From: an uncultured Gammaproteobacteria bacterium
GTDB taxonomy: Bacteria > Patescibacteriota > Microgenomatia > Levybacterales > UBA12049
Length of the DNA: 64,000 nt
Assembly (NCBI GenBank): GCA_964507055.1
Contig: CAZDOJ010000001.1
Coordinates: forward strand, 401,313 to 465,312
Direction of reading: 5' to 3'
In this document: piece by piece, positions 19,848 through 56,082 of the stretch
Position numbering within the stretch: the stretch's first letter is position 1
Layout: every line of letters starts with the position of its first letter
The notes under the pieces: model-generated
The model's input: only the letters and a program-made list of their open reading frames with translations
Database searches by the model: none
What the model was told of the DNA's origin: nothing
Program-made: the position numbers and the translations under genes

Positions 19848-20468
19848 TTATTTATTTTCAATACTTACAAGCTCTGCACGGACCATGTGTCTATAAATAT
19901 CATTTGGACCATCGCATGTAATAAGTGTTACTGATGGCTTCTTTGTGGGGTAAAATACATCGACTTGTGTTGGCTTCACAGTACTAAGTTGTGTAACTTT
20001 ATATGTAGCTTTATAGTTTTTTCCATAAAGAACGATTGTTGCACCTTTCTTTATATCTTTAATAGGAAGAAATGCATTTGCCTGTGCATGACCAAAGATA
20101 CCGACATTTCCATCTTGTTGGTTTACCAAACTTGTACCTTCAGCGTAATTTCCAACTGCATCATTGACTGCCCATGTGCCATTTTTCAGTGGCACTGAAA
20201 CAACTTTCTTATCCAATGTAATACTCTTAACAACTATTCGATCTGGTTTAAATCCTTTATTCTTTATTTCATCTTCCGTTATTTCAGTGCCACAATCTGC
20301 TGTGCAGGCATCTGACGTGTTATTCCACGACAAACTCTGCACCCATTCTGAAATGTTACTTCCATTGAAGAAATCATTCTTCAAAGAACCTAGCTGTATC
20401 AGTGAAGCTAGGACTGTCATCATAACGATGATAGTAAACGTGTTCAGTTTAATGCGTAAAACTTTCAT
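19848..20468 (-). CDS. sortase (transpeptidase), catalytic triad intact
   Basis: N-terminal TM anchor; conserved His (VGIFGHAQ), TLITC active-site Cys motif and downstream Arg (YRHMVRAEL). Confidence 0.8.
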   Translation of the reverse strand: MKVLRIKLNTFTIIVMMTVLASLIQLGSLKNDFFNGSNISEWVQSLSWNNTSDACTADCGTEITEDEIKNKGFKPDRIVVKSITLDKKVVSVPLKNGTWAVNDAVGNYAEGTSLVNQQDGNVGIFGHAQANAFLPIKDIKKGATIVLYGKNYKATYKVTQLSTVKPTQVDVFYPTKKPSVTLITCDGPNDIYRHMVRAELVSIENK

Positions 20469-20474
20469 AACCTA

Positions 20475-20654
20475 TTATTTATTGAACATGTAACGTGTAA
20501 TGTGTCCAACTAACATAATAAGTAAAAGAGTGTTAACAACGACAAATCCAACTGCAACGAGTGGGTGTACTTTATCCGCAAGCATAAGACCTGCAGCTGA
20601 TGTAGCTGGTAATGTTGTTGCTGCTCCTACTAATCCTTTTCCATATTCGTTCAT
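20475..20654 (-). CDS. small (59 aa) membrane protein with a conserved LPATSAAG motif; IcaD/PgaD-position small subunit candidate
   Basis: RBS GGAGGTGAT lies 7 nt upstream of the ATG at 20654. Sequence: MNEYGKGLVGAATTLPATSAAGLMLADKVHPLVAVGFVVVNTLLLIMLVGHITRYMFNK. Its paralog is at 28130-28315. This ORF is absent from the supplied ORF track because it is under 60 aa. Confidence 0.6.
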   Translation of the reverse strand: MNEYGKGLVGAATTLPATSAAGLMLADKVHPLVAVGFVVVNTLLLIMLVGHITRYMFNK

Positions 20655-20682
20655 AATGTAATCACCTCCTTTGGTTCATAGA

Positions 20683-21981
20683 TTACCTGGTTCCCCAGGC
20701 TGTTGAATAACCAACTCTACGAAACGCAGAGTGGCCAAGCGAAATAATATAAGTAAGTGTCGAAAGTAAAAATTTAGTGATGAGATTATAGGAATAGAAT
20801 AGATATGAGCCAAAGAGAACTAGGCTTAAGAAGTTACTATAAATAAGTTCAGGTAAAATTGTAAGCTTAAGCATCCAATCTTTTTTGTCTCGATCAGCAT
20901 AAACACGCATCACAATAATGTTATAGATTGTAGATATCGCAAAACTTACCCATGCTAGAGCAATAAGTACAGGAATCATGCCTTGTGTCCGTGTATATGT
21001 ATCTGCGTAAACAAATGATAAACCGATCAAGACAAATAAACTTAAAAATGAAGCATGCCCAACAAAATCTTGGAAAACAGACGGAATCTGTCTCCAATAT
21101 TGTGCCAAAACATGTAATCCTCCACTTGTCCATCGAGCACGTTGCTTCCAAAGTGCTTCAACAGTTTCAGGGACTTCAGTCCATGCAATTGCTTTCTTAG
21201 CAATTTTTACTTCCCAACCTTTAATCTTTAATCTCGCAGTAATGTCATAGTCTTCAATTAAATGGCCTCTTGTAAAGCCATCAATAGCTTCAAGAACTTC
21301 CATTCTAAATGCAGTAAGCATTCCTTGCATAACAAGCGGACCTTTAAGGAATCCATTATCTGAGATCTTGGTGATATTAAACCCATGGTATTCGAGCCCT
21401 TGCAGACGAGTTACGATGTTTTTATTCTTATTACTAATTCGAACCTGTGAGCAGACAGCTCCGATGCGATAATTAGAGAATAAAGTATTTACCATACTCG
21501 GAATTGTGTCTTTATTAATGACCACATCATCATCAAATGTGAAGACCGCATCAGGCTTAATAGCCAGGGCTTGAAGATATTCGATACCATAATTTAAAGC
21601 TCCAGCCTTTAGCGTATTGGTTGGTGTTCGGAGTGAAACGACTTGAAGATTATTCTCAGCAAGCCAGTTGATTTTACTTAAAACAGGAGCAGTATCGACG
21701 TTAATTGGCGTACAATCATCGACAACAACCACAAGAACTTTAGGATGATATTTGACTATCGATTCAACAAGCTTTGCAGTCATGTCACTTGGACCATATG
21801 TAGGTATGATCACTGCTACATGCTTCTTAGAAAATACTGAGCGTATTGAAGTAGTTTGGGGCCTTTTAGGCACAAAGAAATAGCCCATCTGTGCGGCTGT
21901 TTCAGCTACTGAGTTGACTATATTTGTTCCACGCATAATACTATAAGTCATATTATAAACTATAAGCCTATGAAATGTCAA
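20683..21981 (-). CDS. processive family-2 glycosyltransferase (PgaC/IcaA/NodC/cellulose-synthase-like)
   Basis: DDCTP (DxD region), the QRARWTSGG (QxxRW) motif and C-terminal TM helices. Alternative starts are at 21951 and 21936. Confidence 0.8.
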   Translation of the reverse strand: MTFHRLIVYNMTYSIMRGTNIVNSVAETAAQMGYFFVPKRPQTTSIRSVFSKKHVAVIIPTYGPSDMTAKLVESIVKYHPKVLVVVVDDCTPINVDTAPVLSKINWLAENNLQVVSLRTPTNTLKAGALNYGIEYLQALAIKPDAVFTFDDDVVINKDTIPSMVNTLFSNYRIGAVCSQVRISNKNKNIVTRLQGLEYHGFNITKISDNGFLKGPLVMQGMLTAFRMEVLEAIDGFTRGHLIEDYDITARLKIKGWEVKIAKKAIAWTEVPETVEALWKQRARWTSGGLHVLAQYWRQIPSVFQDFVGHASFLSLFVLIGLSFVYADTYTRTQGMIPVLIALAWVSFAISTIYNIIVMRVYADRDKKDWMLKLTILPELIYSNFLSLVLFGSYLFYSYNLITKFLLSTLTYIISLGHSAFRRVGYSTAWGTR

Positions 21982-22084
21982 GTACTATGGGGCTAAATGA
22001 AGCAACCTATTCCTTCGGACAATACGAAAAGAACGTGGGAATTATGTATTAAAGAGGATTTATACCAAAACAATTAAGCTTGGC

Positions 22085-24430
22085 TTAGTTACTAAGGTTT
22101 ACAGAGTCTACGTACAAGTTGAATGTACTATTAGGTGTGGTGTAGTATTGCAATCGTACTTTATTTACATTCGCACTTGTTGGCTTGTATGTAAATGATT
22201 GTACTCCAGTTACTGGTCCAGTGATCATACCTTTCCACTGTCCTGAGAGCCATGTTCCTGCTGCATCGTATTCATCGATGTAGAACCCAAATTCACCTGT
22301 TCCAGTTAATGCACTTATGTATTGTGACCATGTGTATGTTGTTGCTGGGTTAACTGTGATCATACCTGTAAATGCGTGAGCATAAGCACTATTTGCAGCA
22401 ATCTTCAAACTATTAGTTCCAGCATTACCTTTTGAGGTCGTATCAACTGTAAAGTCTTGCGTATCTCGTGTCCAATTAGCTGCGAATCCACCTGTTACTG
22501 TTTCGAATCCACCGTTTACTACCAAGTTTGTTGTTGGTGCAGTCGAAGGTGTTGGTGTTACTGTTGGTGTTGCACTTGGTGTACTTGTAGGAGTACCAGT
22601 TGGTGTAACACTAGGTGTAGCAGATGGTGTTGCTGTTACCGTTGGAGTTACAGTAGTAGCTGCTGGGTTAGAAAGTGTGTAGTTATCAACTGTAGCACTT
22701 CCTGTTGCACCAGCAGTAAGGTATGTTTGGACTCGGATTGAATTAACCAATGTTGATGTTGCTTTGTAAGCTCGAGCAAATGTAGTTGTAACACCATTTG
22801 TTACTGCTCCGATCCATTGACCAGAAATCCAAGTTCCAGCTGCATTGTATTCATCGATGTAGAATCCAAGCTCGCCTGCTGTTAAGCCACCTGTATTTGC
22901 TACTGCACTGAAGTTATATGTAGCTGCTGTGTCGATTCCTGAAACAGTCTGGAATAAGTGAGTTGCTGTTGTTGTTCCATTAAATCGGATTGCTTGTGCT
23001 TGAACTGTTACGTTTGTTGCATTGTCAGTTGTCCAAGGTGTCAAACCATTTGTGAATGATCCATTAACAATAACATTGTTTGCTGCTGGAGTCGGAGTAA
23101 CACTTGGTGTGCCTGATGGTGTCGCTGTTGGAGTCACAACACTCGGTGTAGGTGTAACACTTGGTGCTCCATCAATATTGTTCAAGTTAACACTATCCAC
23201 ATATGCTGTTCCTGTAGCTCCACCTGTAAGATATGTTTGGATTCGAACTGAGTTAACCAATGTTGATGTTGCATTGTACAATTTAGTGAAGAATCCTATT
23301 GTACCGTTAGTGACCATACCCAACCATTGACCTGAGATCCAGTTACCGTTTGTGTCATATTCGTCGACGTAGAATCCAAGTTCACCAGAAGTCAAACCTG
23401 TTGCATTGTAGAATGCATCAAGAATATAACTTGAGTTAAATGAAACATTTGTTAAACCTGAGAATAAGTGAGTTGCTGAAGCTGCACCAGCCATACTAAC
23501 TGATTGTGTCGGTGAACCATAGTTACCGTGATTTGCATTGTCAGCTTTAACTGCAGCTGCATTATCTGTATTCCAACCATTTGCAAGTCCTGCTTCAAAT
23601 CCTGAATTCTGGATAACATTTGCTCCAGGAATAGTGATAGCTTTTTCGACTGATGTAACTTGGATTTGGCCTGCATTTACCTTTGTTTGGACATAGTTTG
23701 CCATTGTAGTAAGGTTTGCTGTTGTTACAGTGTATTCATATCCAGTGTTTGCTGTTGTAGATGTGTGATGAAAAACAAGGATTAACCACTGTTTGTTTGC
23801 GATTGCTTGATCAACCCATGCTTGTACTTGTGCGGGAGTTACATTCTGATTAACATCTTGTACTACTAAGATTGCTCTATTGTATGGTGCTGTATTTGCT
23901 CCAACATCTTGGAATGCTCGGTGAGATTTGTAGTATTTAAGGATTTCAGTAATAGTAGCGTTGTCATATGCACCAAATGGTGAAGCGAAATTAGTGACGT
24001 TTAAGCCATTTGCTTTGAAAGCTGTGTTTGACTGTGTTAATTGTGCTGCATTCTGTGTAGCTGTAATTGTTGGCATTTCAGGGTGATTAACAGTATGTCC
24101 ACCAATTTCCCATCCGTAGACATTTTGTAATTCTTTTACTTGTGCCCATGTAATTCCTGGGAGGTTATTATCAAGTGTCATTGTCCCATTAGGAACTCCT
24201 GATGAAAGATAAAGGACACCATCAATACCTCGTGCTTCAAGAATTGGAGCCGCGAGGGTTCGAGTTGATGCAAATCCATCATCGAAAGTAAATGAAACTT
24301 GTGCTTTATTAAGATCTGTGAGGTTAGCAATTTTAGCTGCTGATGCAACTGGAGCTTGTGCCAATACGAGTGCCGCCATCAATCCGAAAGCGGTCAAAGA
24401 CTTTACAACTTTGTTTACGAGTTTGTTCAT
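22085..24430 (-). CDS. secreted CE4 (NodB) polysaccharide deacetylase with three CBM4/9-like modules joined by Pro/Thr linkers
   Basis: Signal peptide. NodB motifs TFDDG, GGHTVNHPEM and SPFGAYD. Three modules begin N(L/V)(V/I)xN(G/S)GFE...W and contain GELGFYVDEYD(T/A)(N/A)GNWISGQW, separated by (P/T/S/V)-rich linkers. Confidence 0.85.
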   Translation of the reverse strand: MNKLVNKVVKSLTAFGLMAALVLAQAPVASAAKIANLTDLNKAQVSFTFDDGFASTRTLAAPILEARGIDGVLYLSSGVPNGTMTLDNNLPGITWAQVKELQNVYGWEIGGHTVNHPEMPTITATQNAAQLTQSNTAFKANGLNVTNFASPFGAYDNATITEILKYYKSHRAFQDVGANTAPYNRAILVVQDVNQNVTPAQVQAWVDQAIANKQWLILVFHHTSTTANTGYEYTVTTANLTTMANYVQTKVNAGQIQVTSVEKAITIPGANVIQNSGFEAGLANGWNTDNAAAVKADNANHGNYGSPTQSVSMAGAASATHLFSGLTNVSFNSSYILDAFYNATGLTSGELGFYVDEYDTNGNWISGQWLGMVTNGTIGFFTKLYNATSTLVNSVRIQTYLTGGATGTAYVDSVNLNNIDGAPSVTPTPSVVTPTATPSGTPSVTPTPAANNVIVNGSFTNGLTPWTTDNATNVTVQAQAIRFNGTTTATHLFQTVSGIDTAATYNFSAVANTGGLTAGELGFYIDEYNAAGTWISGQWIGAVTNGVTTTFARAYKATSTLVNSIRVQTYLTAGATGSATVDNYTLSNPAATTVTPTVTATPSATPSVTPTGTPTSTPSATPTVTPTPSTAPTTNLVVNGGFETVTGGFAANWTRDTQDFTVDTTSKGNAGTNSLKIAANSAYAHAFTGMITVNPATTYTWSQYISALTGTGEFGFYIDEYDAAGTWLSGQWKGMITGPVTGVQSFTYKPTSANVNKVRLQYYTTPNSTFNLYVDSVNLSN

Positions 24431-24490
24431 AATTGAAATTGGACAGTTTCATAGTGAGCAGATTACATCTTTTTATATAGATGAGAATCG

Positions 24491-24522
24491 GATAATATCA
24501 CATGTATCCAAAGTGTGTCAAC
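24491..24522 (-). promoter_or_regulatory. sigma70-like promoter (TTGACA-18-TATTAT) for the first CE4 deacetylase gene
   Basis: Minus-strand sequence GTTGACACACTTTGGATACATGTGATATTATCCG, upstream of the start at 24430. Confidence 0.4.
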
Positions 24523-24561
24523 AGTTAATGCCACAGAGAACTGAAAATTGAGGAGATTTTC

Positions 24562-27411
24562 TTAGTTACTAAGACTTACGGAGTCAACGTACAAGTTAAA
24601 TGTACTACTAGGTGTTGTGTAATATTGCAATCTAACTTGACTTACAGCTGTACTTGTTGGAACATATTGGAATGATTGGATACCAGTTGTCGGTCCAGTA
24701 ATCATACCTTTCCATTGTCCTGAAATCCAATTACCTGCTGTATCGTATTCATCGATATAGAACCCGAATTCACCTGTTCCTGTCAATGCACTTACAAATT
24801 GTGACCAAATGTATGTCGTTCCTGGAGTAACTGTGATGAAGTCACTAAATGCGTGTGAGCCAGTAGTACTTGCAAGAACTTGCAAACTGTTTGTACCTTC
24901 ATTTCCTTTTGAAGTAGTATCAATTGCAAAATCAGCTGTATCATGAGTCCAGTTGGCTGCGAAATCACCACTTACTGTTTCAAATCCACCATTTGTTACC
25001 AAGTTTGTTGCTGGTACACCTGTTGGTGTAGGAGTTACACTCGGTGTTTCAGTAGGTGTTGGTGTCACACTTGGTGTACTTGTCGGTTCAACAGTTGGAG
25101 TTACAGTTGGCACATTTGTAGGTTCTGGTGTTACACTTGGTGCATTTTCGTCAGCAATACTGATATTATCAACTGTAGCAGTACCTGTTGATCCCGCTGT
25201 AAGGAATGCATGAACTCGGATTGAGTTTACAAGGTTTGTTGACGCTGTGTATACTCTACTAATATTGTTTACAGCACCTCGCATGAAGCCCCAGAATTGA
25301 ACTGAAACCCAGTTACCGTTTGCATCATATTCATCGACATAATATCCGAGATCACCTGATGTCAAACCAGTTGTGTCAAAGTTTGCACTGACAATGTATC
25401 GAGCTGTGTTATCAAAGTTGTTAATGTGTTGATAAAGATATACTTGTCCAGCCATACCAGTCAACTTTGCTGTACCATTTTCAGCTGCAACGTGTTGTGT
25501 ATCAGTTGTACTCCATGAAGCCAAGCCACTATCAAATCCACTGTTTGCAACGATGTTACCAGCTACAGGTGTAGGTGTAACACTTGGTGTTGTTGTAGGA
25601 ACAACTGTAGGTGTTGGCGTTACATTTGCACCATTTTCATTTGCAATACTTACGTTATCAACTTTTGCTGTTCCTGTAGTTCCAGGAGTCAAGAATACGT
25701 GTACTCGGATAGATTGTACAAGATTTGTTGATGCTGTATAGACTCTATTGATACTGTTAATGCCGCCTCGCATGAAGCCCCAGAACTGTACTGAAACCCA
25801 GTTACCGTTTGCATCATATTCGTCGACGTAGTATCCAAGATCACCTGATGTCAAACCAGTTGTGTCAAAGTTTGCACTGACAATGTATCGAGCTGTGTTA
25901 TCAAAGTTAGTAATATGTTGATACAAATACATTTGTGCTGCATTACCAGTCATTGTGATTCCACCGCTTTCAGCAACGATATGTGTTGTATCAGTTGTAC
26001 TCCATGAAGCCAAACCGCTATCAAATCCACCGTTAACAACGATATTACCAGCTGCAGGTGTAGTTGTAGGAGTAACTGTTGGAGTTACACTTGGTGTACC
26101 TGTAGGCGTAACAGTTGGTGTTGTTGTAGGAGTTGGTGCAGGTGTACCATCCAAGTTATACACTTGAACACTATCAACATATGCTGTACCTGTTGCACCT
26201 GCTGTGAGGTATACTTGAACACGAATTGTGTTAACAAGTGTTGATGTTGCATTGTAAAGCTTGGTAAAGAAGCCTATTGTACCGTTAGTAGCCATACCCA
26301 TCCATTGTCCTGCGAGCCAAGTACCATTTACATCATATTCATCAACATAGAATCCAAGTTCGCCAGATGTTAAGTTTAATGAATTAACGAAAGCATCAAT
26401 AACATAACTTGAATTGTATGACACTTGTGCACCGGTATAGAAAAGATGCGCTTCAGTTGCTGTACCTGTTAAACTTACAGACTGCGTCGGTGAGCCATAA
26501 TTACCGTGATCTGCATTATCAGCTTTGATACTGTTGGCATTATCTGTTGTCCAACCATTGGCAATCCCCGCTTCGAAACCTGAATTTTGGAGAACATTTG
26601 TTCCTGGAATTGTGATTCCTTGTTCGGTTGTAACAACTTGAATTTGACCTGCTGCAACTTTGGTTTGCACATAATTTGCCATTGTAGTAAGGTTTGCTGT
26701 TGTTACTGTGTATTCATAGTTTGGATTCTTTGCTACAGCGGTATCATGGAATACGAGGATCAACCATCGCTTTTCAGTAATTGCCTGATCAACCCATGCT
26801 TGAACTTGTGCAGTTGTAGTCGCATCGTTTACATCTTGAACCATTAATATGTCTTTATGATAAGGTTGACTATTCAAAGCATCTCGATCTGCAAAACCAC
26901 GATGAGATTTGTATAATTTCAAGATTTCAGTCAAAGTCATATTGTCATATGCACCAAATGGTGAAGCGAAGTTCGTGACATTCAATCCGTTTGCTTTAAA
27001 TGCTGCATTTGAATTGGTAAGTTCGGCAACATTTTGTGCTTGTGTAATAGTAGGCATTTCAGCATGGTCTACAGTGTGTCCACCGATTTCCCATCCAAAA
27101 TCATTTTGGAGTTCTCGTACTTGATCCCATGTAATTCCTGGTTGGTTATCATCTAATGTAGCTGTACCATCTGGAACTCCTGATGTTAAATAAAGAACAC
27201 CATCGATACCTCGTGCTTCGAGAATTGGTGCGGCAAGTGTTCGGGTTGATGCAAATCCATCATCAAATGTGAATGAAACTCGTGGAGTATCAAGGTCAGA
27301 AATACTTGTTAAACGTGCAGCGTCAGCAAGAGGTGCTTGTGCCAGGAAGAAAACCGCACTCAAAAAGATTGCGGTTAAAGTTCGTACTATTTTGTTTGTT
27401 AATTTATTCAT
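24562..27411 (-). CDS. secreted CE4 (NodB) polysaccharide deacetylase with four CBM4/9-like modules (paralog of 22085-24430)
   Basis: Same architecture as its neighbour: TFDDG, GGHTVDHAEM, SPFGAYD; four modules with NGGF(D/E)SGLASW...GDLGYYVDEYDANGNWVS and PT linkers. The start is at the ATG at 27411 (MNKLTNKIVRTL signal peptide); the raw ORF runs to 27459. Confidence 0.85.
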   Translation of the reverse strand: MNKLTNKIVRTLTAIFLSAVFFLAQAPLADAARLTSISDLDTPRVSFTFDDGFASTRTLAAPILEARGIDGVLYLTSGVPDGTATLDDNQPGITWDQVRELQNDFGWEIGGHTVDHAEMPTITQAQNVAELTNSNAAFKANGLNVTNFASPFGAYDNMTLTEILKLYKSHRGFADRDALNSQPYHKDILMVQDVNDATTTAQVQAWVDQAITEKRWLILVFHDTAVAKNPNYEYTVTTANLTTMANYVQTKVAAGQIQVVTTEQGITIPGTNVLQNSGFEAGIANGWTTDNANSIKADNADHGNYGSPTQSVSLTGTATEAHLFYTGAQVSYNSSYVIDAFVNSLNLTSGELGFYVDEYDVNGTWLAGQWMGMATNGTIGFFTKLYNATSTLVNTIRVQVYLTAGATGTAYVDSVQVYNLDGTPAPTPTTTPTVTPTGTPSVTPTVTPTTTPAAGNIVVNGGFDSGLASWSTTDTTHIVAESGGITMTGNAAQMYLYQHITNFDNTARYIVSANFDTTGLTSGDLGYYVDEYDANGNWVSVQFWGFMRGGINSINRVYTASTNLVQSIRVHVFLTPGTTGTAKVDNVSIANENGANVTPTPTVVPTTTPSVTPTPVAGNIVANSGFDSGLASWSTTDTQHVAAENGTAKLTGMAGQVYLYQHINNFDNTARYIVSANFDTTGLTSGDLGYYVDEYDANGNWVSVQFWGFMRGAVNNISRVYTASTNLVNSIRVHAFLTAGSTGTATVDNISIADENAPSVTPEPTNVPTVTPTVEPTSTPSVTPTPTETPSVTPTPTGVPATNLVTNGGFETVSGDFAANWTHDTADFAIDTTSKGNEGTNSLQVLASTTGSHAFSDFITVTPGTTYIWSQFVSALTGTGEFGFYIDEYDTAGNWISGQWKGMITGPTTGIQSFQYVPTSTAVSQVRLQYYTTPSSTFNLYVDSVSLSN

Positions 27412-27459
27412 AATAAAATTTGAACAATTTATGTAATATTCAATTTTAATGAGACTCAT

Positions 27460-27492
27460 AGTATCATTAAATTAATCTTTTGTCAAGTCTAT
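27460..27492 (-). promoter_or_regulatory. sigma70-like promoter (TTGACA-17-TACTAT) for the second deacetylase gene
   Basis: Minus-strand sequence CTTGACAAAAGATTAATTTAATGATACTATGAG, upstream of the start at 27411. Confidence 0.4.
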
Positions 27493-27528
27493 AGGATAAC
27501 TCATAGTTATAAAATTGTAATGCTAATT

Positions 27529-28113
27529 TTAGTTAGCTGCTTCTATCTTTACTAACTCTGCTTTTACAATATGCTGTTTGTTAGAAAAGATTTCATCTGA
27601 CGTAACGAGTGTCAAAATAGGTGTTTTTGTTGGAGCAAAAACATTTGTATCAGTTGCAAGTGCATCCCGTGAAGAAGTCACTTTATATGTTGCTTTCTGG
27701 CCATTACCATAGACGATAATTGCAGCGTCATTATCTAATTGTTGGATTCGAGTGAATCCGTCCAATCGATCATTAGCAAATAGTCCAACATTTCCTTCTT
27801 GTGCATTAACCAAACTTGTACCTTCAGCAAAGTTTGCAACATGTGGAAGAACTTCCCAAGTTCCATCTTTCAATGGAACAGAAAATATTGGGAGATCAAT
27901 CTCTACAGATGATATAACTACTCTTTCAGGAGTGAATGCCGAAAGTGTTTTTACAGGTGTAATAGTAGGAGTAACTGGTGTGACAGGAGTTGCAGTTAAT
28001 TCTTGTGAGTTTGCAACAGTAGCAGAGAGCCCATTACCTAACGAACTGAGCTGAAAGATACTAGCGAATGCCGCCAAGACAAATATAGTTGTATAAATAC
28101 TAACTTTTTTCAT
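27529..28113 (-). CDS. sortase-fold paralog with substituted catalytic His, Cys and Arg (pseudo-sortase)
   Basis: Aligned to the 19848-20468 sortase it keeps the fold (EGTSLVN, NVGLF, KATYKVT, TLVT) but has FGH->FAN, TLITC->TLVTS and RxxVRAEL->KQHIVKAEL. It retains an N-terminal TM segment and a PT-rich linker. Confidence 0.7.
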   Translation of the reverse strand: MKKVSIYTTIFVLAAFASIFQLSSLGNGLSATVANSQELTATPVTPVTPTITPVKTLSAFTPERVVISSVEIDLPIFSVPLKDGTWEVLPHVANFAEGTSLVNAQEGNVGLFANDRLDGFTRIQQLDNDAAIIVYGNGQKATYKVTSSRDALATDTNVFAPTKTPILTLVTSDEIFSNKQHIVKAELVKIEAAN

Positions 28114-28129
28114 ATTATTATTAATTTAA

Positions 28130-28315
28130 TTATTTAGTACGATTTACTAAATAACGACTGATTTGACCTGCTAAGATAACAAGCCATACGACATTAAGTA
28201 CTATAAAACCTGCTAATACTATTGGGTTACTAAAGTCAGCAAAAAATGCTCCTGCTGCTGAAGTAGCCGGTAATACCGCTGCGCCTAATACTTGTCCTTT
28301 TCCGTAATCTGTCAT
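28130..28315 (-). CDS. small (61 aa) membrane protein with the LPATSAAG motif (paralog of 20475-20654)
   Basis: RBS AAAGGAGAAACT upstream of the ATG at 28315. Sequence: MTDYGKGQVLGAAVLPATSAAGAFFADFSNPIVLAGFIVLNVVWLVILAGQISRYLVNRTK. The raw ORF 28130-28471 carries an artifactual N-terminal extension that overlaps the GT2 gene. Confidence 0.6.
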   Translation of the reverse strand: MTDYGKGQVLGAAVLPATSAAGAFFADFSNPIVLAGFIVLNVVWLVILAGQISRYLVNRTK

Positions 28316-28328
28316 AGTTTCTCCTTTC

Positions 28329-29591
28329 TTAGTTTTTTGTTCCCCACTTTGTTGAGAATCCTGCCTTATTAAAGGCTGCGAGTCCCCAATTATATGGAGC
28401 ATTGAATAAAGATATTTTATTTGCGATGGGTTTAAAGATTTTGTTGTATACGATGAACAAATATGAGCCAAGTAAAATAAGACTCAATAAGTTACTGTAA
28501 ATAAGTTCAGGAAGAACTGTTAATTTCATCGCCCAATCTTTCTTATCACTGTCTTCGTAAAGTGCCAATGAAACGACATTGAAAATGAACGCAACTAAGA
28601 AGTTGAATAATGAAAGTCCAAATAAGATAAGCACTGTTTCAGGTTCACTCTTTCCTGTTCGAACAAAGAAGAATGAAAGGACAATCAATCCGAAAAGACT
28701 TAAGAAAAGAATATGACCGATAAGGTCTTGGTAGACGACATCAAATTTCTTCCAGAATTCTCCCAATACATGCAATCCACCACTTACCCATCGAACACGT
28801 TGTTTCCAAAGTGCTTCGATGGTTTCAGGAACTGTTGTCCATGCGATTGCTTTTTGTGCAATCTTTACATTCCAGCCTTCACTCTTCAATCGTGCAGTAA
28901 TGTCATAATCTTCAATTAAATGACCTTTGGTAAAACCATTGATTTCTTGAATTGCATCTGTTCTAAAAGCAGTCAACATACCATGCATAACAAGTGGTCC
29001 TTTTAAGAAACCGTTATCTGCAATCTTTGTAATGTTAAAGTTGTGATACTCAAGTGCTTGCAAACGCGTAAGGAAGTTTTTGTTCTTGTTAATGACACGA
29101 ACTTCTGAACAAACTGCACCGATTGTTTCATCAGAATATAATGTTGCAATCATTTTCGTTACAGTCTTTTTAGTAATAATGACATCATCATCAAAAGTGA
29201 AAATTACATCTGGTTTGGTATTAAGACTTAATACATATTCAATACCATGGTTTAATGCACCAGCTTTTAATTCATTCTTTGGAGTTCTCAAATATGCCAT
29301 GTTGTTATGTTCATTTGCGAGATCTTTAATCTTGTTCAAAATTCTAAGATTTTTTTCTGTTTCTGGAGTACAATCATCAATAACTACAAGGATAGCTTCT
29401 GGGTGCCATTCAAGAATAGACTTTATAAGATTATGGGTCATTTCAGATGGAGTGTGAGTTGGAACAAGAATTGCTGGAAGTTTACTATGTACAATAGCCT
29501 CATTTATTTCAATTCTTTCTTTTTTTGGAGCAAAGAAATGCACGGAGTTCTCCGCAATTACTTTGAATGTATTTCTTGGTTTTCTGTTCAT
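28329..29591 (-). CDS. processive family-2 glycosyltransferase (paralog of 20683-21981)
   Basis: VVIDDCTP, QRVRWVSGG and C-terminal TM helices; the catalytic core is similar to the 20683 protein. Confidence 0.85.
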   Translation of the reverse strand: MNRKPRNTFKVIAENSVHFFAPKKERIEINEAIVHSKLPAILVPTHTPSEMTHNLIKSILEWHPEAILVVIDDCTPETEKNLRILNKIKDLANEHNNMAYLRTPKNELKAGALNHGIEYVLSLNTKPDVIFTFDDDVIITKKTVTKMIATLYSDETIGAVCSEVRVINKNKNFLTRLQALEYHNFNITKIADNGFLKGPLVMHGMLTAFRTDAIQEINGFTKGHLIEDYDITARLKSEGWNVKIAQKAIAWTTVPETIEALWKQRVRWVSGGLHVLGEFWKKFDVVYQDLIGHILFLSLFGLIVLSFFFVRTGKSEPETVLILFGLSLFNFLVAFIFNVVSLALYEDSDKKDWAMKLTVLPELIYSNLLSLILLGSYLFIVYNKIFKPIANKISLFNAPYNWGLAAFNKAGFSTKWGTKN

Positions 29592-29646
29592 GAGTTGTGA
29601 TTATATAGGACGTCTTATAATATGTCAAGAGGTAATATTATGGGCT

Positions 29647-31089
29647 TTATGATGTTCGTTGCCGTCTATGGTTTTCTTGGACCAATGTGAACTTTCCTAC
29701 ACCACTGTCATCATATGCATTCATAAGCTGAATATGTGCCTCTGGATAGAATTGAGCCAAAGTATCTAAAACTTTTCTTTGAACCAGCATATTACCTTGA
29801 ATTACTCCTCCTGCAACGGGAAATGGTAAATGACCTTTACCGTCATATCCGCCCTGATGTAATGTAGCGGCTATCATAAGTCCCATAACCTGTCCAGCCT
29901 GTTCATATGCACGGTAGGTTATACCTTCAACCAGTTCCCGCTCTTGCGGTTCAAGCTTGAAATAAAGTCTATCGTAAAAGAGTTCAGCTGATTTAGGATC
30001 ACTTGGTCTACGAGGTCCATCAAAAAAATTGAATTTTTTCGTTTGCAAATATGTATTAATATCACGAAGATTTTCTGTACGTATAAGATTTGGATCATTT
30101 TCTGTCAGAAGCGAAACTGCACCAACCATCCTTTGTCTAATTCGGTCTCCTCCAGTAAGGTATTTTAAGGCATTTCCCAAAGGCATCTTTCCATTTTTTG
30201 TCATGTATTCTTGTAAAAGATTTCCAGGTAAGATATCTGTATATGAACTAATATCCAACGTCTCTCCATGTAATTCTGCACTTGTTCCAGTCCCTCCGAT
30301 AAAGCTTACTGGCACAGGATCACCATGAGCATCCCAATCTGAAACATCATTACCAGTCGCAATCGTATCATGGAGGAAGTAAACACGCTCCACACCAAGT
30401 CCATTAGCTTGTAAATGACTAATAAGTGCAGGACCAAGAGCTGGCTGTACTTCAGCAGGAACTTCTAAATCTATATCTGTAAGGTTCCAATTAGAAGGCT
30501 TTCCATTTGGACGAGCATCGATGCCATGATCTTCAACAGTATTTAAAATAGGAAAACCTAGAGATACCCCCATTGCTTTAACATGTTGATAATCCTCTTT
30601 GCGATGGTGTACTTCATCAAACCCTCCAAGTAAGTGATCACCAATCGCTTCTGCCAAACCATGTACTGTCATTGTTCTTGATTCTGTGTCTTTTGGAATA
30701 CGGTGGTGACTAAATGTTTCTCCTAGGAATCTGCCTGATTCTTTTGTAATTATTCCTGAACGCTGATTCGTTCCTCCCCATAAAGCCACGAATGCCTGTT
30801 CATCTACAGGAACTTCTGCTAAATCTCTCCATGTAATTCTTGGAATATCAAGGGCTGGTGATTTTTCTCGCGTATCGAGAGCTGCTGTAAGTGTTGCAAA
30901 AGCACGAGATAGTTCATCGGATGTATAAGGACGCAAGCCAATTTTGTCCAAACGTGTCCCCACTTCCCTTTCAGGCAACAAAGTAGATTCATGTTTTAAA
31001 ACATGGCTCAGTTTACGCGTCAATAGCATGGGTGGAAATTCACCCAATACCGATACATTAGAAAAATTTGGTCGAACAAATTCTGCCAT
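29647..31089 (-). CDS. hexokinase-family sugar kinase (putative)
   Basis: FVALWGGTNQRSG resembles the hexokinase phosphate-1 motif (DLGGTNFR). The length (480 aa) and a second glycine-rich motif FIGGTGTSAE also fit. Local GC (~43%) is higher than the flanks. Confidence 0.45.
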   Translation of the reverse strand: MAEFVRPNFSNVSVLGEFPPMLLTRKLSHVLKHESTLLPEREVGTRLDKIGLRPYTSDELSRAFATLTAALDTREKSPALDIPRITWRDLAEVPVDEQAFVALWGGTNQRSGIITKESGRFLGETFSHHRIPKDTESRTMTVHGLAEAIGDHLLGGFDEVHHRKEDYQHVKAMGVSLGFPILNTVEDHGIDARPNGKPSNWNLTDIDLEVPAEVQPALGPALISHLQANGLGVERVYFLHDTIATGNDVSDWDAHGDPVPVSFIGGTGTSAELHGETLDISSYTDILPGNLLQEYMTKNGKMPLGNALKYLTGGDRIRQRMVGAVSLLTENDPNLIRTENLRDINTYLQTKKFNFFDGPRRPSDPKSAELFYDRLYFKLEPQERELVEGITYRAYEQAGQVMGLMIAATLHQGGYDGKGHLPFPVAGGVIQGNMLVQRKVLDTLAQFYPEAHIQLMNAYDDSGVGKFTLVQENHRRQRTS

Positions 31090-31222
31090 ATTTAAGTCTT
31101 ATAATTTTATATGATAAATGTACATATATGTTTATTTATATACATTTTCCTATCATATTTAAGACCTATAATTATACACATTTATTGAAGAAATGCAAAT
31201 TTACAGCGAGGTACAAAATAAT

Positions 31223-32002
31223 TTATTTCTCGAGCCAGCGATTGAGGTGCAATTTAAGAGAATCTAAATGACTCTGCGATGAAAAAGTATGAGGTGCATC
31301 AACAATGATATGTAATTCTTTTTTACCAGGTAATTTCGTATAAAGCATTTTTTGATGCTCGACAGGTGTAGCATCATCCTTATCGCCTACTAGCATAAAA
31401 ACGGGCATAACTAACTTATGTGCATCCTGAAGAATATTGTATTTCAGTCTATCTTCCATGTGAGACCAAGGCAGCCTTCTTATATCTTTCCCATTTGAAG
31501 AAACTCTTGTAAACCAACCTGATTTTTTCCAATCATCAAGAGAATCTCTATATTTATTCGTTTTTATACTTAATTTACCAGAGATAACGGTTGAGAGAGG
31601 AAGAAGCCCTTTAATTTTTTCTGGGTGTGCTACTGCATATAACAAGGCTGCCACTCCTCCTAAACTATGCCCAGCCAAATAAAATGGTTCTGTGTACCAA
31701 GACTGCTTTGATGACCATTGGATAAGATCTTGCAAATCTTCATGATAATTTGTAATAGTAGCTTTTTCATACATACCATCACTTTCACCAATAGTGTTGG
31801 TTGTATCGAAACGAATTACAGTAAACCCTTTTTGACGAAATGTATCTGCAACAGTAGAGATATGTGGTTGTTCTTTATTGCCACCCAAACCATGAATGAT
31901 AAAAACCAATCCTTTTGCCTTAGCTTTTTCTTCAATAAGAACCGCTAGTTTTTGTCCTTTTCTATTTTTGATGAATACCTTCTGCATGATTTTATTATGC
32001 AT
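31223..32002 (-). CDS. alpha/beta-hydrolase (esterase/lipase-type)
   Basis: GHSLGG nucleophile elbow, an upstream HGLGG oxyanion region, and a C-terminal Asp/His (DAPHTF). Confidence 0.75.
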   Translation of the reverse strand: MHNKIMQKVFIKNRKGQKLAVLIEEKAKAKGLVFIIHGLGGNKEQPHISTVADTFRQKGFTVIRFDTTNTIGESDGMYEKATITNYHEDLQDLIQWSSKQSWYTEPFYLAGHSLGGVAALLYAVAHPEKIKGLLPLSTVISGKLSIKTNKYRDSLDDWKKSGWFTRVSSNGKDIRRLPWSHMEDRLKYNILQDAHKLVMPVFMLVGDKDDATPVEHQKMLYTKLPGKKELHIIVDAPHTFSSQSHLDSLKLHLNRWLEK

Positions 32003-33060
32003 TATTTTGCAAATTTTGCTACGTGGTTTTTATATGCCGTCGGATATGGCAGATCTTGGATTCCAGCTGCAATAGTTGAACGCATTTGATCAGAAAATGC
32101 TGACACTGGTTCACGTTTTCCATTTTGTACCCCATCGACAACTTCTTCTGGTATTTTGTATGTTCCTAAATAATCAAAACTCATTTGAGGATCAAGTAAC
32201 GATACTAGTGGTGACTGTGCAACTAAATGAACATGTGGTAAGCCCGCTTTTACAGCTAATACAACTGGACCTGTATTCCATTTTTCAAGAACTCGGAATC
32301 CACCTTCTGGTGAAAGTGTCGGTATTGCTCCAGCCGAAATGACAGCTTTCATTTGTTCAGCTACTTCATCTACGCCACCTTCAGATAAGATTACATTACC
32401 TAAGTCATCCATTACTCTTTGATAAAAATCACTTGGCTGCGGTGATCTTGTAAGTCGAGCAACTGATAACCCTTCTTCCGCAAGTGCTGCATCCATAGCA
32501 ATTCGTGTAACAACTGGACCTGTATCATGAACTACTTTTCCATTTTCCCAATCCATGACATCAATTTCGGGAGTATGTGTGTTATGAGTTCCAATAACAA
32601 GACCAGGACCATATGTTTGGAGGTCTGCTAAAAAGTCTTCCTTACCGTTGAAAACAGGCTGGAATGTTTGTGTTACAAATTCTCTAAGCGGATCAAGTCC
32701 AGACTTTCCATCCATATAGTTAGCCAACCTTATATGATATTCAGCAATTCGACCACCTGTAGGCTCACCTTCTGAGCGTTTAATAATAGCGGCGACATCA
32801 TCAACCATCCTTCGATCAGCATCAACGATTCGTGCATCTGTCCGAGGGATACCTTGGGCTTTTGCTATGCCAACACCCATAAGATCGGGTAAGAGTATAT
32901 TTTGTGCAAGTTCTCGCATACCAGCACTTCGTTGCTCATGCATTTGCTCTGCAGCTCCTGAAAATCTTTTTAAAGGCATATATTGCAGCGTGGTATCAGT
33001 CGACCAAGTATGTAGCCCACCTCTGGTTAATATTTCTGTTGAAACAAGTCTTTCTGCCAT
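32002..33060 (-). CDS. conserved hypothetical protein (possibly a GalT-like/DUF4921-4922-type partner)
   Basis: 352-aa soluble protein with no clear motif, translationally coupled to its neighbours. Confidence 0.4.
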   Translation of the reverse strand: MAERLVSTEILTRGGLHTWSTDTTLQYMPLKRFSGAAEQMHEQRSAGMRELAQNILLPDLMGVGIAKAQGIPRTDARIVDADRRMVDDVAAIIKRSEGEPTGGRIAEYHIRLANYMDGKSGLDPLREFVTQTFQPVFNGKEDFLADLQTYGPGLVIGTHNTHTPEIDVMDWENGKVVHDTGPVVTRIAMDAALAEEGLSVARLTRSPQPSDFYQRVMDDLGNVILSEGGVDEVAEQMKAVISAGAIPTLSPEGGFRVLEKWNTGPVVLAVKAGLPHVHLVAQSPLVSLLDPQMSFDYLGTYKIPEEVVDGVQNGKREPVSAFSDQMRSTIAAGIQDLPYPTAYKNHVAKFAK

Positions 33061-33064
33061 AGTA

Positions 33065-34111
33065 TTATGCTGCTTCAGCTAAATGCATATTTGAAAGTTT
33101 AGCATTACCAAATACTTTTTCTACAACAGTTCTTTGAGTCTGAGCTGCTTCATCTGCTGGAATTAAATGTTTGTAGTCAGGATTTCTTTTCGATTGAATT
33201 CCTGCAGATTCAAGGACACCAATTGGCCCAGCAAACGATGGAGAGACCGATATATGGCGATCACCCTTTTCATCGAGTTCAATATATAAGTTATATGCTG
33301 GCTGTTCTAATAGTTCAGCACCTCTTCTACCATAACGCTCACCTAAACTAGAAGCCACAGTTGTATAAGCTTCATGATGATCTCTCATATTAGTTGTGAA
33401 AATATCTATATCTGCTTCAGCAGGGATTCGGAAAGAATAACCATATGGCATAGCATCTCTTTGTTGAAGAAGTAATGTTGAAGATTCGCCTTTTCCAAGA
33501 GCCCTTTGAATTCGTGGCAGTACAGATGGTAATAATCTATTTGTTATTGCTCGTTCCTCTGTAAAACCCTGAATATCTTCAACTCCATTTTCAATATACG
33601 GTTGAAAGAAGTCTTTTCTTACTGCCATGATATGATCATGATGCAATCCTATTGTTCGTGCGTTTCTTTCTTTTTCGTTAGAATAGTTCCTCATCCAATT
33701 CCCACCTGAAAAGACTCGGTACTCAGGTCCAAGTAATTCTCGATAAGCTTCGAGTCCTTCATGGAGTAATTCCCAGTAAGCACTTTGTGTTTCATGAGGA
33801 TGGTCCGTTAGTAACTCTGCTTGAATAGGTTGATCCTTAGGACGTTGTTCAAAATCAGCTCCTTTTGCTATCATCATGTAATGATATGGTGTGTATGGAC
33901 CTGTTGCTACATGAAGTCGAACTTCACTACCATCTTTTAAAGGAGCAGTTAATAGGGTTCTTGGATTATTATCACCAAGAAATCTTGATTCAAGTTCTCC
34001 AGGTAGATTAAAAATTGCGGTTGTTCTTGCTACTTCTTCTTTCGGGGTAACTCCATTAAATCCTTGTCCGGGCATTCTTAAACTGCCTTGTGGTAAACTC
34101 TCTGCTTTCAT
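33065..34111 (-). CDS. HIT-like/GalT-like nucleotidyltransferase (putative)
   Basis: The GLHHDHIMAV motif resembles the GalT/HIT HxHxQ/H motif, and it lies in an operon with a sugar-1-P nucleotidyltransferase and a kinase. Confidence 0.35.
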   Translation of the reverse strand: MKAESLPQGSLRMPGQGFNGVTPKEEVARTTAIFNLPGELESRFLGDNNPRTLLTAPLKDGSEVRLHVATGPYTPYHYMMIAKGADFEQRPKDQPIQAELLTDHPHETQSAYWELLHEGLEAYRELLGPEYRVFSGGNWMRNYSNEKERNARTIGLHHDHIMAVRKDFFQPYIENGVEDIQGFTEERAITNRLLPSVLPRIQRALGKGESSTLLLQQRDAMPYGYSFRIPAEADIDIFTTNMRDHHEAYTTVASSLGERYGRRGAELLEQPAYNLYIELDEKGDRHISVSPSFAGPIGVLESAGIQSKRNPDYKHLIPADEAAQTQRTVVEKVFGNAKLSNMHLAEAA

Positions 34112-47257: not shown

Positions 47258-47325
47258 TTTGACTTCTGAGGCTAGAATGCGTATAATGTCATCAGTTCAT
47301 ATACATATGATTCAGGCAAAAAATT

Positions 47326-52589: not shown

Positions 52590-52636
52590 CCTATAACATT
52601 TAATATAGGCTTATTTAAATGCCTAGAAATAAATAT

Positions 52637-55623: not shown

Positions 55624-56082
55624 ATGAGTTTACTACCCAAAACCATAAGTCTTCTGAGTTTTTTAACACTTCTTTCTTTTATTTTTATTTCACCAGTCCA
55701 GGCACAAACAGCAAATATAACAACTATCCGAGGACAAATACTTGATGATGAGGGACAACCTTTCAAATTTGCAAAAGTTCAAGTTAATTGTGATGGAAAA
55801 ACTCAAAATTCCATTACAAGTGGTCAAGGAAAATATATTGCAATTTTTGCAGGAAATAATTGCGGGATAGGTGATCCAGTAACAGTAACTGCGACAAAGG
55901 ATGGGAAGTCTGGAAGTAGTACAGGAATTGTACAAAATAGAAGAGATGGTCGTATAGTAGATGTGAATTTCTCAGTAGTCAGTTTTAACATTAATGTTCC
56001 TGAATTTGGATTGCTTCCTGGTGCAATTGCAGCTTTGGGTTCAGCTGGTGCATTCCTCGCTATTCGAAGAAGAAAGATCTAA
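55624..56082 (+). CDS. secreted protein with a PEF/PEP-CTERM-like sorting signal
   Basis: Signal peptide; the C-terminus is VPEFGLLPGAIAALGSAGAFLAIRRRKI, i.e. a P-E-F/P motif, a Gly/Ala-rich TM helix and an RRRK tail. Confidence 0.6.
   Translation: MSLLPKTISLLSFLTLLSFIFISPVQAQTANITTIRGQILDDEGQPFKFAKVQVNCDGKTQNSITSGQGKYIAIFAGNNCGIGDPVTVTATKDGKSGSSTGIVQNRRDGRIVDVNFSVVSFNINVPEFGLLPGAIAALGSAGAFLAIRRRKI

Follow-up and report, generated by a model that had tools for sequence, protein, structure and literature searches.

Sortases are known as enzymes of protein display and pilus building. To our knowledge, none of the synthase-dependent exopolysaccharide (EPS) systems, Pga, Ica, Bcs and the hyaluronan synthases (HAS) among them, makes use of one. 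Two of the closest described systems, ica and pga, produce poly-N-acetylglucosamine (PNAG) by means of a processive family 2 glycosyltransferase (GT2), a tiny membrane protein whose gene comes next, and a carbohydrate esterase of family 4 (CE4) that works outside the cytoplasm on the exported chain. Bacteria of the Candidate Phyla Radiation (CPR) live in attachment to other cells, and very little is known about the biology of their envelopes. Here we analyze a stretch of 64,000 nt of contig CAZDOJ010000001.1 (hereafter the window), in which GT2 and CE4 genes stand together with genes for membrane peptides of about 60 residues and for sortases. Our reading, to which we assign a probability of roughly 0.7, is that these genes form two diverged copies of a synthase-dependent EPS module with a built-in sortase-substrate pair, operating in the steps set out below. 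The synthase module is widespread in the CPR, and here it incorporates a sortase together with the apparent substrate of that sortase.

The module genes all lie on the minus strand of the window, which was scanned for open reading frames (ORFs) of at least 35 aa (n = 401). An earlier reading of this DNA (the original prediction) had placed eight ORFs here. All are present, and the domain calls and outer bounds (19848-29591) are borne out by the ORFs and by Pfam, which finds GT2 (Glyco_tranf_2_3, Chitin_synth_2), Sortase and Polysacc_deac_1 domains in the expected proteins. In order of transcription the genes run GT2a-pepA-srtA(dead)-CE4a-CE4b-GT2b-pepB-srtB(active)-GH10, the last encoding a glycoside hydrolase of family 10. 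The two CE4 genes adjoin each other and are flanked by two GT2-peptide-sortase triplets. This differs from the same four-gene order repeated head-to-tail that had been proposed; the first copy does read GT2-peptide-sortase-CE4, but the second stretch reads CE4-GT2-peptide-sortase. Paralogues are 54% (GT2), 51% (peptide), 40% (sortase) and 56% (CE4) identical, and the intergenic gaps measure 13 and 16 nt in triplet A and 28 and 6 nt in triplet B.

The parallel with ica and pga drawn in the original prediction stands for the architecture (GT2, tiny membrane partner, CE4) and fails for family membership at every component. The best NCBIfam model for both GT2s is indeed PgaC_IcaA (TIGR03937), followed by XrtG- and XrtP-associated GT2 models as the second and third types of match, with NodC also among the matches. 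The scores, however, are 125.6 bits for GT2a and 125.0 bits for GT2b against a cut-off of 422.3, and the GT2s are not members of the PgaC/IcaA equivalog. The CE4s are likewise no PgaB equivalogs (17.3 and 16.2 bits, cut-off 321.9); NCBIfam matches them best to HfsH, a deacetylase of holdfast polysaccharide, with 68 bits where the cut-off is 400. The two peptides match no NCBIfam or Pfam family significantly, even at E values up to 10, and give no PgaD/IcaD match. In contrast to ica and pga, the peptide here has no similarity to PgaD/IcaD and a single transmembrane (TM) helix instead of two, the GT2 lacks N-terminal TM helices, and the CE4 proteins carry three to four carbohydrate-binding modules (CBMs) in place of a GH153 domain. 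A sortase or pseudo-sortase, moreover, belongs to the module here.

The membrane peptides predicted to follow each GT2 are real, with lengths of 61 (pepA) and 59 aa (pepB), and strong Shine-Dalgarno sites stand in front of both (AGGAG for pepA, AGGAGGTGAT for pepB). In a genome scan with a pepA hidden Markov model (HMM), a homologue lies directly downstream of the GT2 gene in 52 of 52 CPR loci, and the small ORFs are hence conserved in relatives. Spacing ranges from ORF overlaps to gaps of at most 276 nt, mostly below 100 nt, the apparent overlaps arising from mechanical ORFs that extend upstream of the true starts. The ratio of nonsynonymous to synonymous substitution rates (dN/dS) of the peptide is 0.08-0.15. 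The possibility that the small ORFs are spurious was rejected on the Shine-Dalgarno sites, this ratio and the complete synteny. In the alignment of the family, R54 and N58 are invariant within an R[YF]xxN motif that immediately follows the only strong TM segment, and the N-terminus is conserved as M-x-[DN]-[YF]-x-x-G. The peptide is a true partner of the GT2.

A word-indexed search retrieved 141 members of this peptide family. An exhaustive HMMER search over 1.84 billion representatives returned 73 clusters at 50% identity, none of them annotated. Homologues are 47-112 aa long, with one exception, the peptide-pseudo-sortase fusion P0310 described below. Bipolaricaulota and other distant loci encode a GT2, then a 58-aa ORF, then a CE4. 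Since these loci lie outside the CPR, the GT2-peptide-CE4 core is older than the CPR and extends beyond it. In two of them, from Bipolaricaulota- and Thermotogae-labeled bins (L055 9629-12147; L059 3434-5819), the GT2 is about 30% identical, the CE4 has 300 aa and no sortase is present; the 58-aa ORF begins MYCNVP[TA]LGLGQ and contains a TM helix.

Both sortases exceed the cut-off of the Pfam Sortase model (PF04203; srtA 48.4 and srtB 67.4 bits, cut-off 26.6) and fall inside one cassette-sortase clade in a neighbor-joining (NJ) tree, the method used for all phylogenies here. The NCBIfam sortase class models, with cut-offs of about 160 bits, are not reached (best score 39.6 for srtB, class E, and 20.1 for srtA, class C). 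The original prediction of one active and one dead sortase holds. The triad of srtB is intact (H127, C185, R193), and its PDB matches are class A sortases with Cys and Arg aligned, whereas in srtA the His, Cys and Arg are all replaced (N, S and Q). The catalytic Arg, at Cys+8 in the alignment, is present in every active sortase and gone in every dead one. Relative to the closest genome locus (L003, OZ246394.1; GT2 89% identical), dN/dS amounts to 0.11 for srtA, 0.07 for GT2a and 0.075 for CE4a, and srtA is a maintained pseudo-enzyme.

Both peptides display the three-part layout of a sorting signal, namely an LPxTG-type motif, a hydrophobic helix and a basic tail. The pepA sequence reads MTDYGKGQVLGAAV-LPATS-AAGAFFADFSN, followed by a 22-residue TM helix (Kyte-Doolittle (KD) value 2.7) and SRYLVNRTK; pepB ends in TRYMFNK. 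A sorting-signal scan of the 401 window ORFs gave four matches, pepA, pepB, a LAPTG protein and one likely false positive. The LPXTG_anchor HMM (TIGR01167) was uninformative, missing the classical LAPTG protein of the window as well. That protein, of 210 aa and rich in Pro and Thr, has a TM helix and an RKSK end (52619-53251, plus strand) and forms a conventional pair with a third sortase of 177 aa encoded directly after it (53264-53797, plus strand), which belongs to a different, housekeeping TCTP-type clade. We take this pair as the internal control for a substrate and its sortase being encoded side by side in this genome.

We scored the motif as [LIVMF]Px[TS][GASTN] at the aligned position and compared its distribution with that of neighboring sortases. 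Among genome loci, a sortase homologue is the very next gene for 23 of 23 assessable motif-bearing peptides versus 1 of 27 motif-less ones, the latter sortase being dead (Fisher 2e-13). An independent scan of metagenome contigs gave 9 of 11 with the motif versus 0 of 38 without it (Fisher 3e-8). Both tests ignore phylogeny, and much of their signal is one split between Microgenomates/WWE3/Dojkabacteria-type and Parcubacteria-type loci, which tells against taking the counts at face value. Twenty of the 23 sortases adjacent to a motif keep His, Cys and Arg, and the other three are of the dead type A.

Because the counts ignore phylogeny, joint losses of motif and sortase weigh more than raw numbers. 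In L009 and L010 the peptide motif is deleted and the sortase triad lost; in L012 the motif has become LPVMG and the sortase gene is absent. L069 and L070 both read LPAAS, the first beside a sortase without His and Cys, the second beside a 35-aa sortase remnant. In L071 the motif reads LPASG and the sortase is dead and fused to the peptide. The decay of the L069 and L070 sortases was predicted from the peptide sequence before the genomic contexts were examined. The L071 fusion protein, P0310 (379-1260, 293 aa), joins a peptide homologue to a catalytically dead sortase of cassette type. In such a chain, the peptide tail would have to be cytoplasmic and the N-terminal stub outside, on the same side as the sortase domain.

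Sortase and motif also meet in a second arrangement. A distant form of the module, whose GT2 is 29% identical, carries the sortase as a C-terminal fusion to a TM-anchored CE4. These CE4-sortase fusions (PF01522+PF04203) comprise 10 protein clusters, and the sortase signature is intact in all those inspected. The mini-ORF after the GT2 in fusion loci reads MPYGEVALPSTGG, MSYGPSLPATGGG, MYGPDLPATG or ..GYLPPTGGG, with the motif placed as in MPYGEVA-LPSTG-G, MSYGPS-LPATG-GG, MYGPD-LPATG-T and MGY-LPPTG-GG. Canonical LPATG occurs in P0299, P0311, L083 and most fusion-type loci, other motifs ending in S, T or A. The fusion sortase domains fall outside the cassette-sortase clade, and a sortase and an LPxTG motif were hence recruited to the module at least twice. 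A compact version, made up of the TM-CE4-sortase fusion, a GT2 of about 355 aa and a 52-60-aa LPxTG mini-peptide, was seen in Nealsonbacteria, WWE3 and one archaeon-labeled bin (L053 8612-11237; L054 48-2712; L066 4001-6609; L068 4001-6588; L067 4001-6559).

The original prediction regarded the peptide as merely IcaD/PgaD-like and the sortase as an insertion, a view at odds with a LPATS motif that co-occurs and degenerates with the neighboring sortase. In its strictest form such an explanation would make the peptide only a structural subunit, its LPATS incidental, and the sortase a mere neighbor or an enzyme serving other LPXTG proteins. The TM helix, the R[YF]xxN tail and the N-terminal motif are kept in sortase-free Parcubacteria-type loci, and because the peptide is conserved there, its core role must be independent of the sortase. 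Pseudo-sortases persist without the motif in L009 and L010, and two lineages have the motif with no adjacent sortase, as the same explanation would have it. Set against this are the near-perfect co-occurrence of motif and sortase in two data sets, the five joint degenerations, the independent rise of canonical LPxTG peptides with CE4-sortase fusions, and the separate sortase that this genome keeps beside its own classical LAPTG substrate. We regard a purely structural peptide as very unlikely. The small subunit of the synthase is probably cleaved by the adjacent sortase.

Several observations weigh against such cleavage. Only 14 residues precede the motif of pepA, with neither a signal peptide nor a passenger domain, and we know of no characterized sortase substrate that resembles a cargo-less peptide without a signal peptide. 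Most cassette-type peptides have motifs ending in S, T or A rather than G. Cassette A retains LPATS beside a dead sortase, for which processing in trans has to be assumed, and L003 has no active sortase within the 21 kb examined. L074/L152 and L138 keep LPATA with the CE4 directly after the peptide, and no sortase lies within 6 kb downstream of the L152 peptide; the CE4-sortase fusion locus L067 reads VITTGGG and not LPxTG. Pseudo-sortases, finally, are retained even where the motif has gone, which implies that the sortase fold also has a motif-independent role, probably a structural one.

The GT2s are membrane-integrated processive synthases, nearest in fold to hyaluronan, chitin and cellulose synthases. 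The motifs D72-D73, D134-D136, E227-D228 and Q264-R-V-R-W268 are invariant in the 34 sequences aligned. In an AlphaFold2 (AF2) model of GT2a (pLDDT 87.7), the GT-A domain is accompanied by an interface helix and by only three TM helices, all of them C-terminal; the N-terminus has none. The predicted processive enzyme with QxxRW and C-terminal TM helices is thus recovered in both motifs and model. Foldseek places hyaluronan synthases first (TM-score 0.63-0.65; Cv-HAS, Xl-HAS1), then an archaeal mannosyltransferase, BcsA and chitin synthases, and the PDB sequence matches are HAS, chitin synthase and cellulose synthase. Judging from the model, three TM helices are probably too few to form a channel alone, which would be consistent with a requirement for further helices supplied by the peptide and by the membrane anchor of the sortase. 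The GT2 family has a conserved extreme C-terminus, ...G[YF]Sxx-W-G-T-[RK], and distant versions also end in ...W; this end may be a contact with the peptide tail. No natural GT2-peptide fusion was found among 120 GT2 matches, all of which end ...WGT[RK].

Three observations bear on the donor sugar. A GlmU-type gene in the window (NCBIfam GlmU models up to 203 bits) covers the N-terminal uridylyltransferase half only. L001 and L002 each have, one gene ahead of the GT2, a gene for an NTP_transferase (Pfam NTP_transferase/IspD). In the 690-aa JGI metagenome protein P0112, a GlmU-type UDP-GlcNAc diphosphorylase domain is naturally fused to a GT2 of this family, 41% identical to GT2a. The stand-alone GlmU-type domain probably supplies a UDP-N-acetylhexosamine (UDP-HexNAc) donor. 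Given that gene nearby and the P0112 fusion, we infer that the donor is UDP-GlcNAc or a close UDP-HexNAc and that the polymer is of HexNAc type. The assignment is indirect, and the GH10 enzyme and CBM4/9/16/22 modules, classically associated with xylan and glucan, speak against it.

Each deacetylase exceeds the cut-off of Polysacc_deac_1 (PF01522; 55.5 and 53.3 bits, cut-off 23.1), and the metal-binding and catalytic motifs can be read in both (FTFDDGF; GGHTVDH / GGHTVNH). Repeat modules number four in CE4a and three in CE4b, with 24 invariant positions across the seven. The C-terminal module of CE4a passes Pfam CBM_4_9 (PF02018; 27.2 bits against 25.9), module 1 reaching only 15.3, and an AF2 model of the module (pLDDT 79) matches CBM16, CBM22 and CBM4-2 folds at a TM-score of about 0.7. 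Pfam, the module alignment and the fold match together uphold the prediction of CE4 deacetylases with three to four CBM4/9-like modules. Tandem Repeats Finder (TRF) detects in CE4a a repeat of period 489 in 1.9 copies with 82% matches. This 489-bp duplication is a recent event that made the near-identical modules 2 and 3, and hence the fourth module. The CE4 repeats are exactly where public short-read assemblies of this organism are interrupted, contigs L062-L065 ending there.

The composition of these proteins raises the question of whether the CE4-CBM proteins and GH10 are ordinary secreted xylan degraders, acetylxylan esterases and a xylanase, that stand beside the GT2-peptide-sortase genes by chance. 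CBM16/22/4-type folds and GH10 are typical of xylanases, and the single, weak PDB sequence match of CE4a is a CE4 domain deposited as an 'endo-1,4-beta-xylanase' (E = 0.005). A CE4+CBM gene nevertheless follows in 32 of the 52 genome-set loci carrying the peptide, directly after GT2-peptide(-sortase) and in many CPR lineages, and this synteny argues against stand-alone xylan esterases. CE4 is elsewhere fused to a sortase, the best NCBIfam match is HfsH, and GH10 is confined to the type-A sub-lineage. A chance neighborhood of xylan degraders is extremely improbable. The GH10 protein is TM-anchored at its N-terminus and also contains a domain of some 250 aa whose type was not recognized; its gene occurs at the same position in L001, L002 and L069, and it is likely an accessory hydrolase of the cassette.

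The mechanism that we propose builds on the observed gene content, families, synteny, co-variation and selection, and adds a peptide topology, a cleavage, an acceptor and a sugar identity as inferred parts. A GT2 like HAS, chitin synthase and PgaC would polymerize a UDP-HexNAc-derived chain and extrude it through the membrane. The single-pass peptide of about 60 aa, made from the same transcript, would act as an obligatory small subunit, its TM helix completing the three-TM synthase; this helix and the R[YF]xxN tail on the cytoplasmic side are conserved everywhere. Secreted CE4-CBM proteins would bind the emerging chain and deacetylate it, and the membrane-anchored GH10 would probably trim it. 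In this branch of the CPR, the extracytoplasmic N-terminal part of the peptide would present LPxT[S/T/A/G] to a membrane-anchored sortase encoded next to it and dedicated to that motif. In cassette B, srtB would cut pepB after Thr, form a thioacyl intermediate with a stub of about 18 residues and pass the stub to an amine; candidate peptide substrates of srtB would be GAATTLPATSAAG and, in a fluorescence resonance energy transfer (FRET) format, GAATTLPATSAAGL. In cassette A, srtA would serve as a non-catalytic sortase-fold subunit that probably still docks the peptide, the CE4 protein or both. Action of srtB on pepA in trans is plausible in the window, as is such action in L001.

With a stub of only 5-18 residues, the purpose of the reaction would not be the display of a protein domain. 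An alternative is that the sortase is a processing protease or switch, removal of the stub activating, inactivating or releasing the synthase by hydrolysis with nothing ligated. A short stub without a domain would suit this, as would the aromatic-Gly N-terminal motif, conserved even without a sortase, whose removal could change the behavior of the synthase; dead sortases could then be non-cleaving binders. The acyl-enzyme of SrtA is known to be hydrolyzed when a nucleophile is absent, which also counts in favor of a switch. Sortases are transpeptidases, however, and we know of no precedent for a sortase in a dedicated protease role. The CE4-sortase fusions suggest that the amine-generating and sortase steps are coupled, and a simple switch would not need the intact His-Cys-Arg found in 20 lineages. 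We judge a pure switch unlikely.

Returning to cleavage followed by ligation, we tentatively prefer as acceptor of the stub a glucosamine (GlcN) unit on the nascent chain, freshly unmasked by the CE4. We favor it because of the CE4-sortase fusions and by analogy with the order of reactions in NodC/NodB/NodA. Transfer to peptidoglycan or lipid II seems rather doubtful. That the sortase works in glycan chemistry in the wider sense, the stub being donated either to the CE4-unmasked GlcN amine or to peptidoglycan while carrying the glycan, is a real possibility somewhat short of even odds.

The last of these ideas is taken furthest if the stub is itself a glycan carrier or primer, through Tyr or Ser/Thr, and the sortase moves the glycan-stub to peptidoglycan to anchor the EPS. 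There is one peptide gene per synthase gene, tightly coupled, and a Tyr-Gly near the N-terminus is common to cassette-type and fusion-type peptides. A PMT-type GT-C enzyme is encoded nearby (35837-38476), and Actinomyces oris GspA, glycosylated by LcpA, is a precedent for a wall-anchored LPXTG protein that bears a glycan (PMC6381275). Phe nevertheless replaces Tyr in Parcubacteria-type peptides, and the sortase-linked peptides of L027, L045, L048 and L051 also lack Tyr; the GT2 active site is cytoplasmic, and the stub must end up outside. No enzyme attaching glycan to peptide was identified, and we hold the model to be quite unlikely.

The history of the two cassettes can be read from their relatives. 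Homologues of GT2a come nearly all from metagenome bins of Patescibacteria/CPR (WWE3, Woesebacteria, Levybacteria, Dojkabacteria, Kaiserbacteria and other Parcubacteria), and the 'Gammaproteobacteria' label of L003 is evidently an automatic mislabel. CPR-type loci also occur in other records of metagenome-assembled genomes titled 'uncultured Gammaproteobacteria' or 'Pseudomonadales' (L003, L005, L007, L009, L014, L021, L028 and L034 in all), and the taxonomic labels of these records look unreliable. In the trees GT2a, srtA and CE4a group with L003 and L001 (type A), and GT2b and srtB with L005 and L007 together with an orphan active sortase of L001, L001_10243 (type B). CE4b is sister to the type-A CE4s, and the 418-aa CE4 of L001 is of type B. 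Cassette B has lost the CE4 that it once had, and CE4b arose later as a copy of CE4a.

L001 and L002 show the order GT2-peptide-dead sortase-CE4(A)-active sortase-CE4(B)-GH10. The simplest history would begin with two old cassettes in tandem, [GT2-pep-srt-CE4]A and then [GT2-pep-srt-CE4]B. L001 would subsequently have dropped GT2b and pepB, and in the lineage of the window the CE4 of type B would have been lost and that of type A duplicated. We rejected a recent, simple tandem duplication because lineages A and B are old (GT2 54% identical) and have different relatives.

Coordinates of the features are collected in Table 1. The ORF of CE4a reaches 27459, where a promoter-like site lies at 27486-27458, and its likeliest start is M17 (27411). 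A second perfect 12/12 promoter match (21981-21952) overlaps the annotated TTG start of GT2b. Since a perfect -35/-10 match sits on that codon, GT2b probably starts downstream of TTG 21981, at M16 (21936) or later. Weaker promoter-like sites precede each CE4, that of CE4b matching 11/12 at 24521-24492. All these calls are sigma-70 consensus matches, whose total number is no higher than chance, and the two perfect ones would fit an arrangement in four transcription units.

Table 1. Positions of the module genes and associated features in the window
Feature	Coordinates	Strand	Basis
GT2a, processive membrane GT2 synthase of cassette A, 420 aa	28329..29591	-	Pfam, AF2, Foldseek
pepA, 61-aa partner peptide of cassette A, proposed sortase substrate	28130..28315	-	Shine-Dalgarno, synteny, dN/dS
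srtA, pseudo-sortase, 194 aa, N-terminal TM anchor	27529..28113	-	Pfam Sortase, alignments
CE4a, secreted CE4 deacetylase, 949 aa, four CBM4/9-type modules, Pro/Thr linkers	24562..27411	-	Pfam Polysacc_deac_1
489-bp internal tandem duplication in CE4a	25117..26068		TRF
CE4b, second CE4 deacetylase, 781 aa, three CBM modules	22085..24430	-	CE4a identity, NJ tree
GT2b, processive GT2 synthase of cassette B	20683..21981 (ORF as listed)	-	GT2a identity, tree
pepB, 59-aa partner peptide with LPATS, TM helix and basic tail	20475..20654	-	Shine-Dalgarno, pepA identity
srtB, active cassette sortase, 206 aa, N-terminal TM anchor	19848..20468	-	Pfam Sortase, triad
GH10 glycoside hydrolase, 586 aa	17960..19720	-	Pfam Glyco_hydro_10, 221 bits
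Sigma-70-like promoter match TTGACA-17-TATAAT, just upstream of GT2a	29600..29628	-	12/12, consensus match only
480-aa protein, family not recognized, directly upstream of GT2a	29647..31089	-	weak Hexokinase_2 signal
Stand-alone GlmU-type uridylyltransferase domain, 248 aa	34114..34860	-	NCBIfam GlmU

Glycan-related genes are abundant on both sides of the cassettes. Between the GlmU-like gene and GT2a lie four genes on the minus strand (29647-34111), encoding proteins of 348 and 352 aa without Pfam or NCBIfam match, an alpha/beta hydrolase and the 480-aa protein. The latter has a Pfam Hexokinase_2 match at E = 0.28, which is not significant; the gene at the same position in L069 has the same weak match, and the protein may be a sugar kinase. 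Upstream of the GT2, L001 and L069 again have a hexokinase-like gene and one for an unrecognized 345-aa protein, and these recurrent genes may supply a sugar precursor.

Further away on the minus strand, an 879-aa protein (35837-38476), found also in L002, joins a PMT/GT-C membrane glycosyltransferase to a BcsZ-like GH8 endoglucanase (140 bits). Its gene adjoins that of a 741-aa GT2-GT2 fusion whose second half is PgaC/cellulose-synthase-like (38480-40705). The pair looks like a second synthase-type glycan system. On the plus strand, 41140-48141 encodes a 1376-aa GT2-GT2-GT4 protein, another GT2, a polysaccharide pyruvyl transferase, a third, small CE4 (271 aa) and two proteins of 530-540 aa without Pfam match; this appears to be a further envelope glycan cluster. 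G+C content falls from about 37% to 28-30% across the last 8 kb of the window (56000-64000), which may be a foreign or differently evolving segment.

On the most conservative reading, the module described here is an uncharacterized multi-phylum GT2-mini-peptide-CE4 system with about 73 unannotated peptide clusters at 50% identity. The maintained pseudo-sortases and the CE4-sortase fusions suggest, in addition, that a glycan machine spanning the envelope uses the sortase fold as a structural adaptor. The chance that the underlying chemistry is new is substantial. Were the peptide cleaved and ligated, this would open a route to a new class of peptide-glycan conjugates or a new mechanism of wall anchoring. 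With GlcN as acceptor, the product would be a polysaccharide N-acylated with a ribosomal peptide; either acceptor, GlcN or peptidoglycan, would give monoderm-like CPR bacteria a previously undescribed means of capping their EPS, tethering it or anchoring it to the wall. Among natural sortase substrates, the peptide would be the first cargo-less one to belong to a biosynthetic machine as a subunit, and the enzyme would be a natural sortase of unusual donor (LPAT-S/T/A) and perhaps acceptor (sugar amine) specificity, which could be of use in sortagging. Full-text literature searches for such a system and for sugar-amine nucleophiles yielded no description of a sortase-coupled synthase module; subscription journals lie mostly outside this coverage, and an earlier description is possible.

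Comparison with systems other than ica and pga places the module among several partial likenesses. With HAS, chitin synthase and BcsA the GT2 shares a GT-A domain with DxD, ED and QxxRW followed by interface and TM helices; here, however, there are only three TM helices, and identity is about 15%. In NodC-NodB-NodA, a GT2 HexNAc polymerase, a CE4 that unmasks a sugar amine and an amine-acylating enzyme follow one another as would be the case here, by analogy only. The Nod enzymes are cytoplasmic and make short oligomers to which NodA transfers a fatty acid, whereas the steps proposed here would be extracytoplasmic, with a ribosomal peptide as acyl donor and a sortase as ligase.

Among sortase-related systems, GspA of A. 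oris is reportedly anchored by the housekeeping sortase SrtA. The GspA-LcpA-SrtA system resembles the module in that a single pathway brings together a glycopolymer, wall anchoring and an LPXTG protein; GspA itself is an ordinary secreted protein that an LCP phosphotransferase glycosylates, and the pathway is not known to include a GT2 synthase, a CE4 or a mini-peptide (PMC6381275). Exosortase systems (PEP-CTERM / XrtG, XrtP) likewise couple a protein-sorting transpeptidase genetically to an EPS locus, with an unrelated enzyme fold and sorting motif and with many full-size proteins as their substrates. Dedicated sortase-substrate pairs, such as the class GN 'marine' sortase with its single LPQTG target and the pilus sortases with their pilins, are also encoded by adjacent genes, and their substrates likewise combine an LPxT-type motif with a TM helix and a basic tail. 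In contrast to these, the substrate here would be a stub of 5-18 aa without signal peptide or cargo, and belongs to a peptide that is also a conserved subunit of a glycan synthase.

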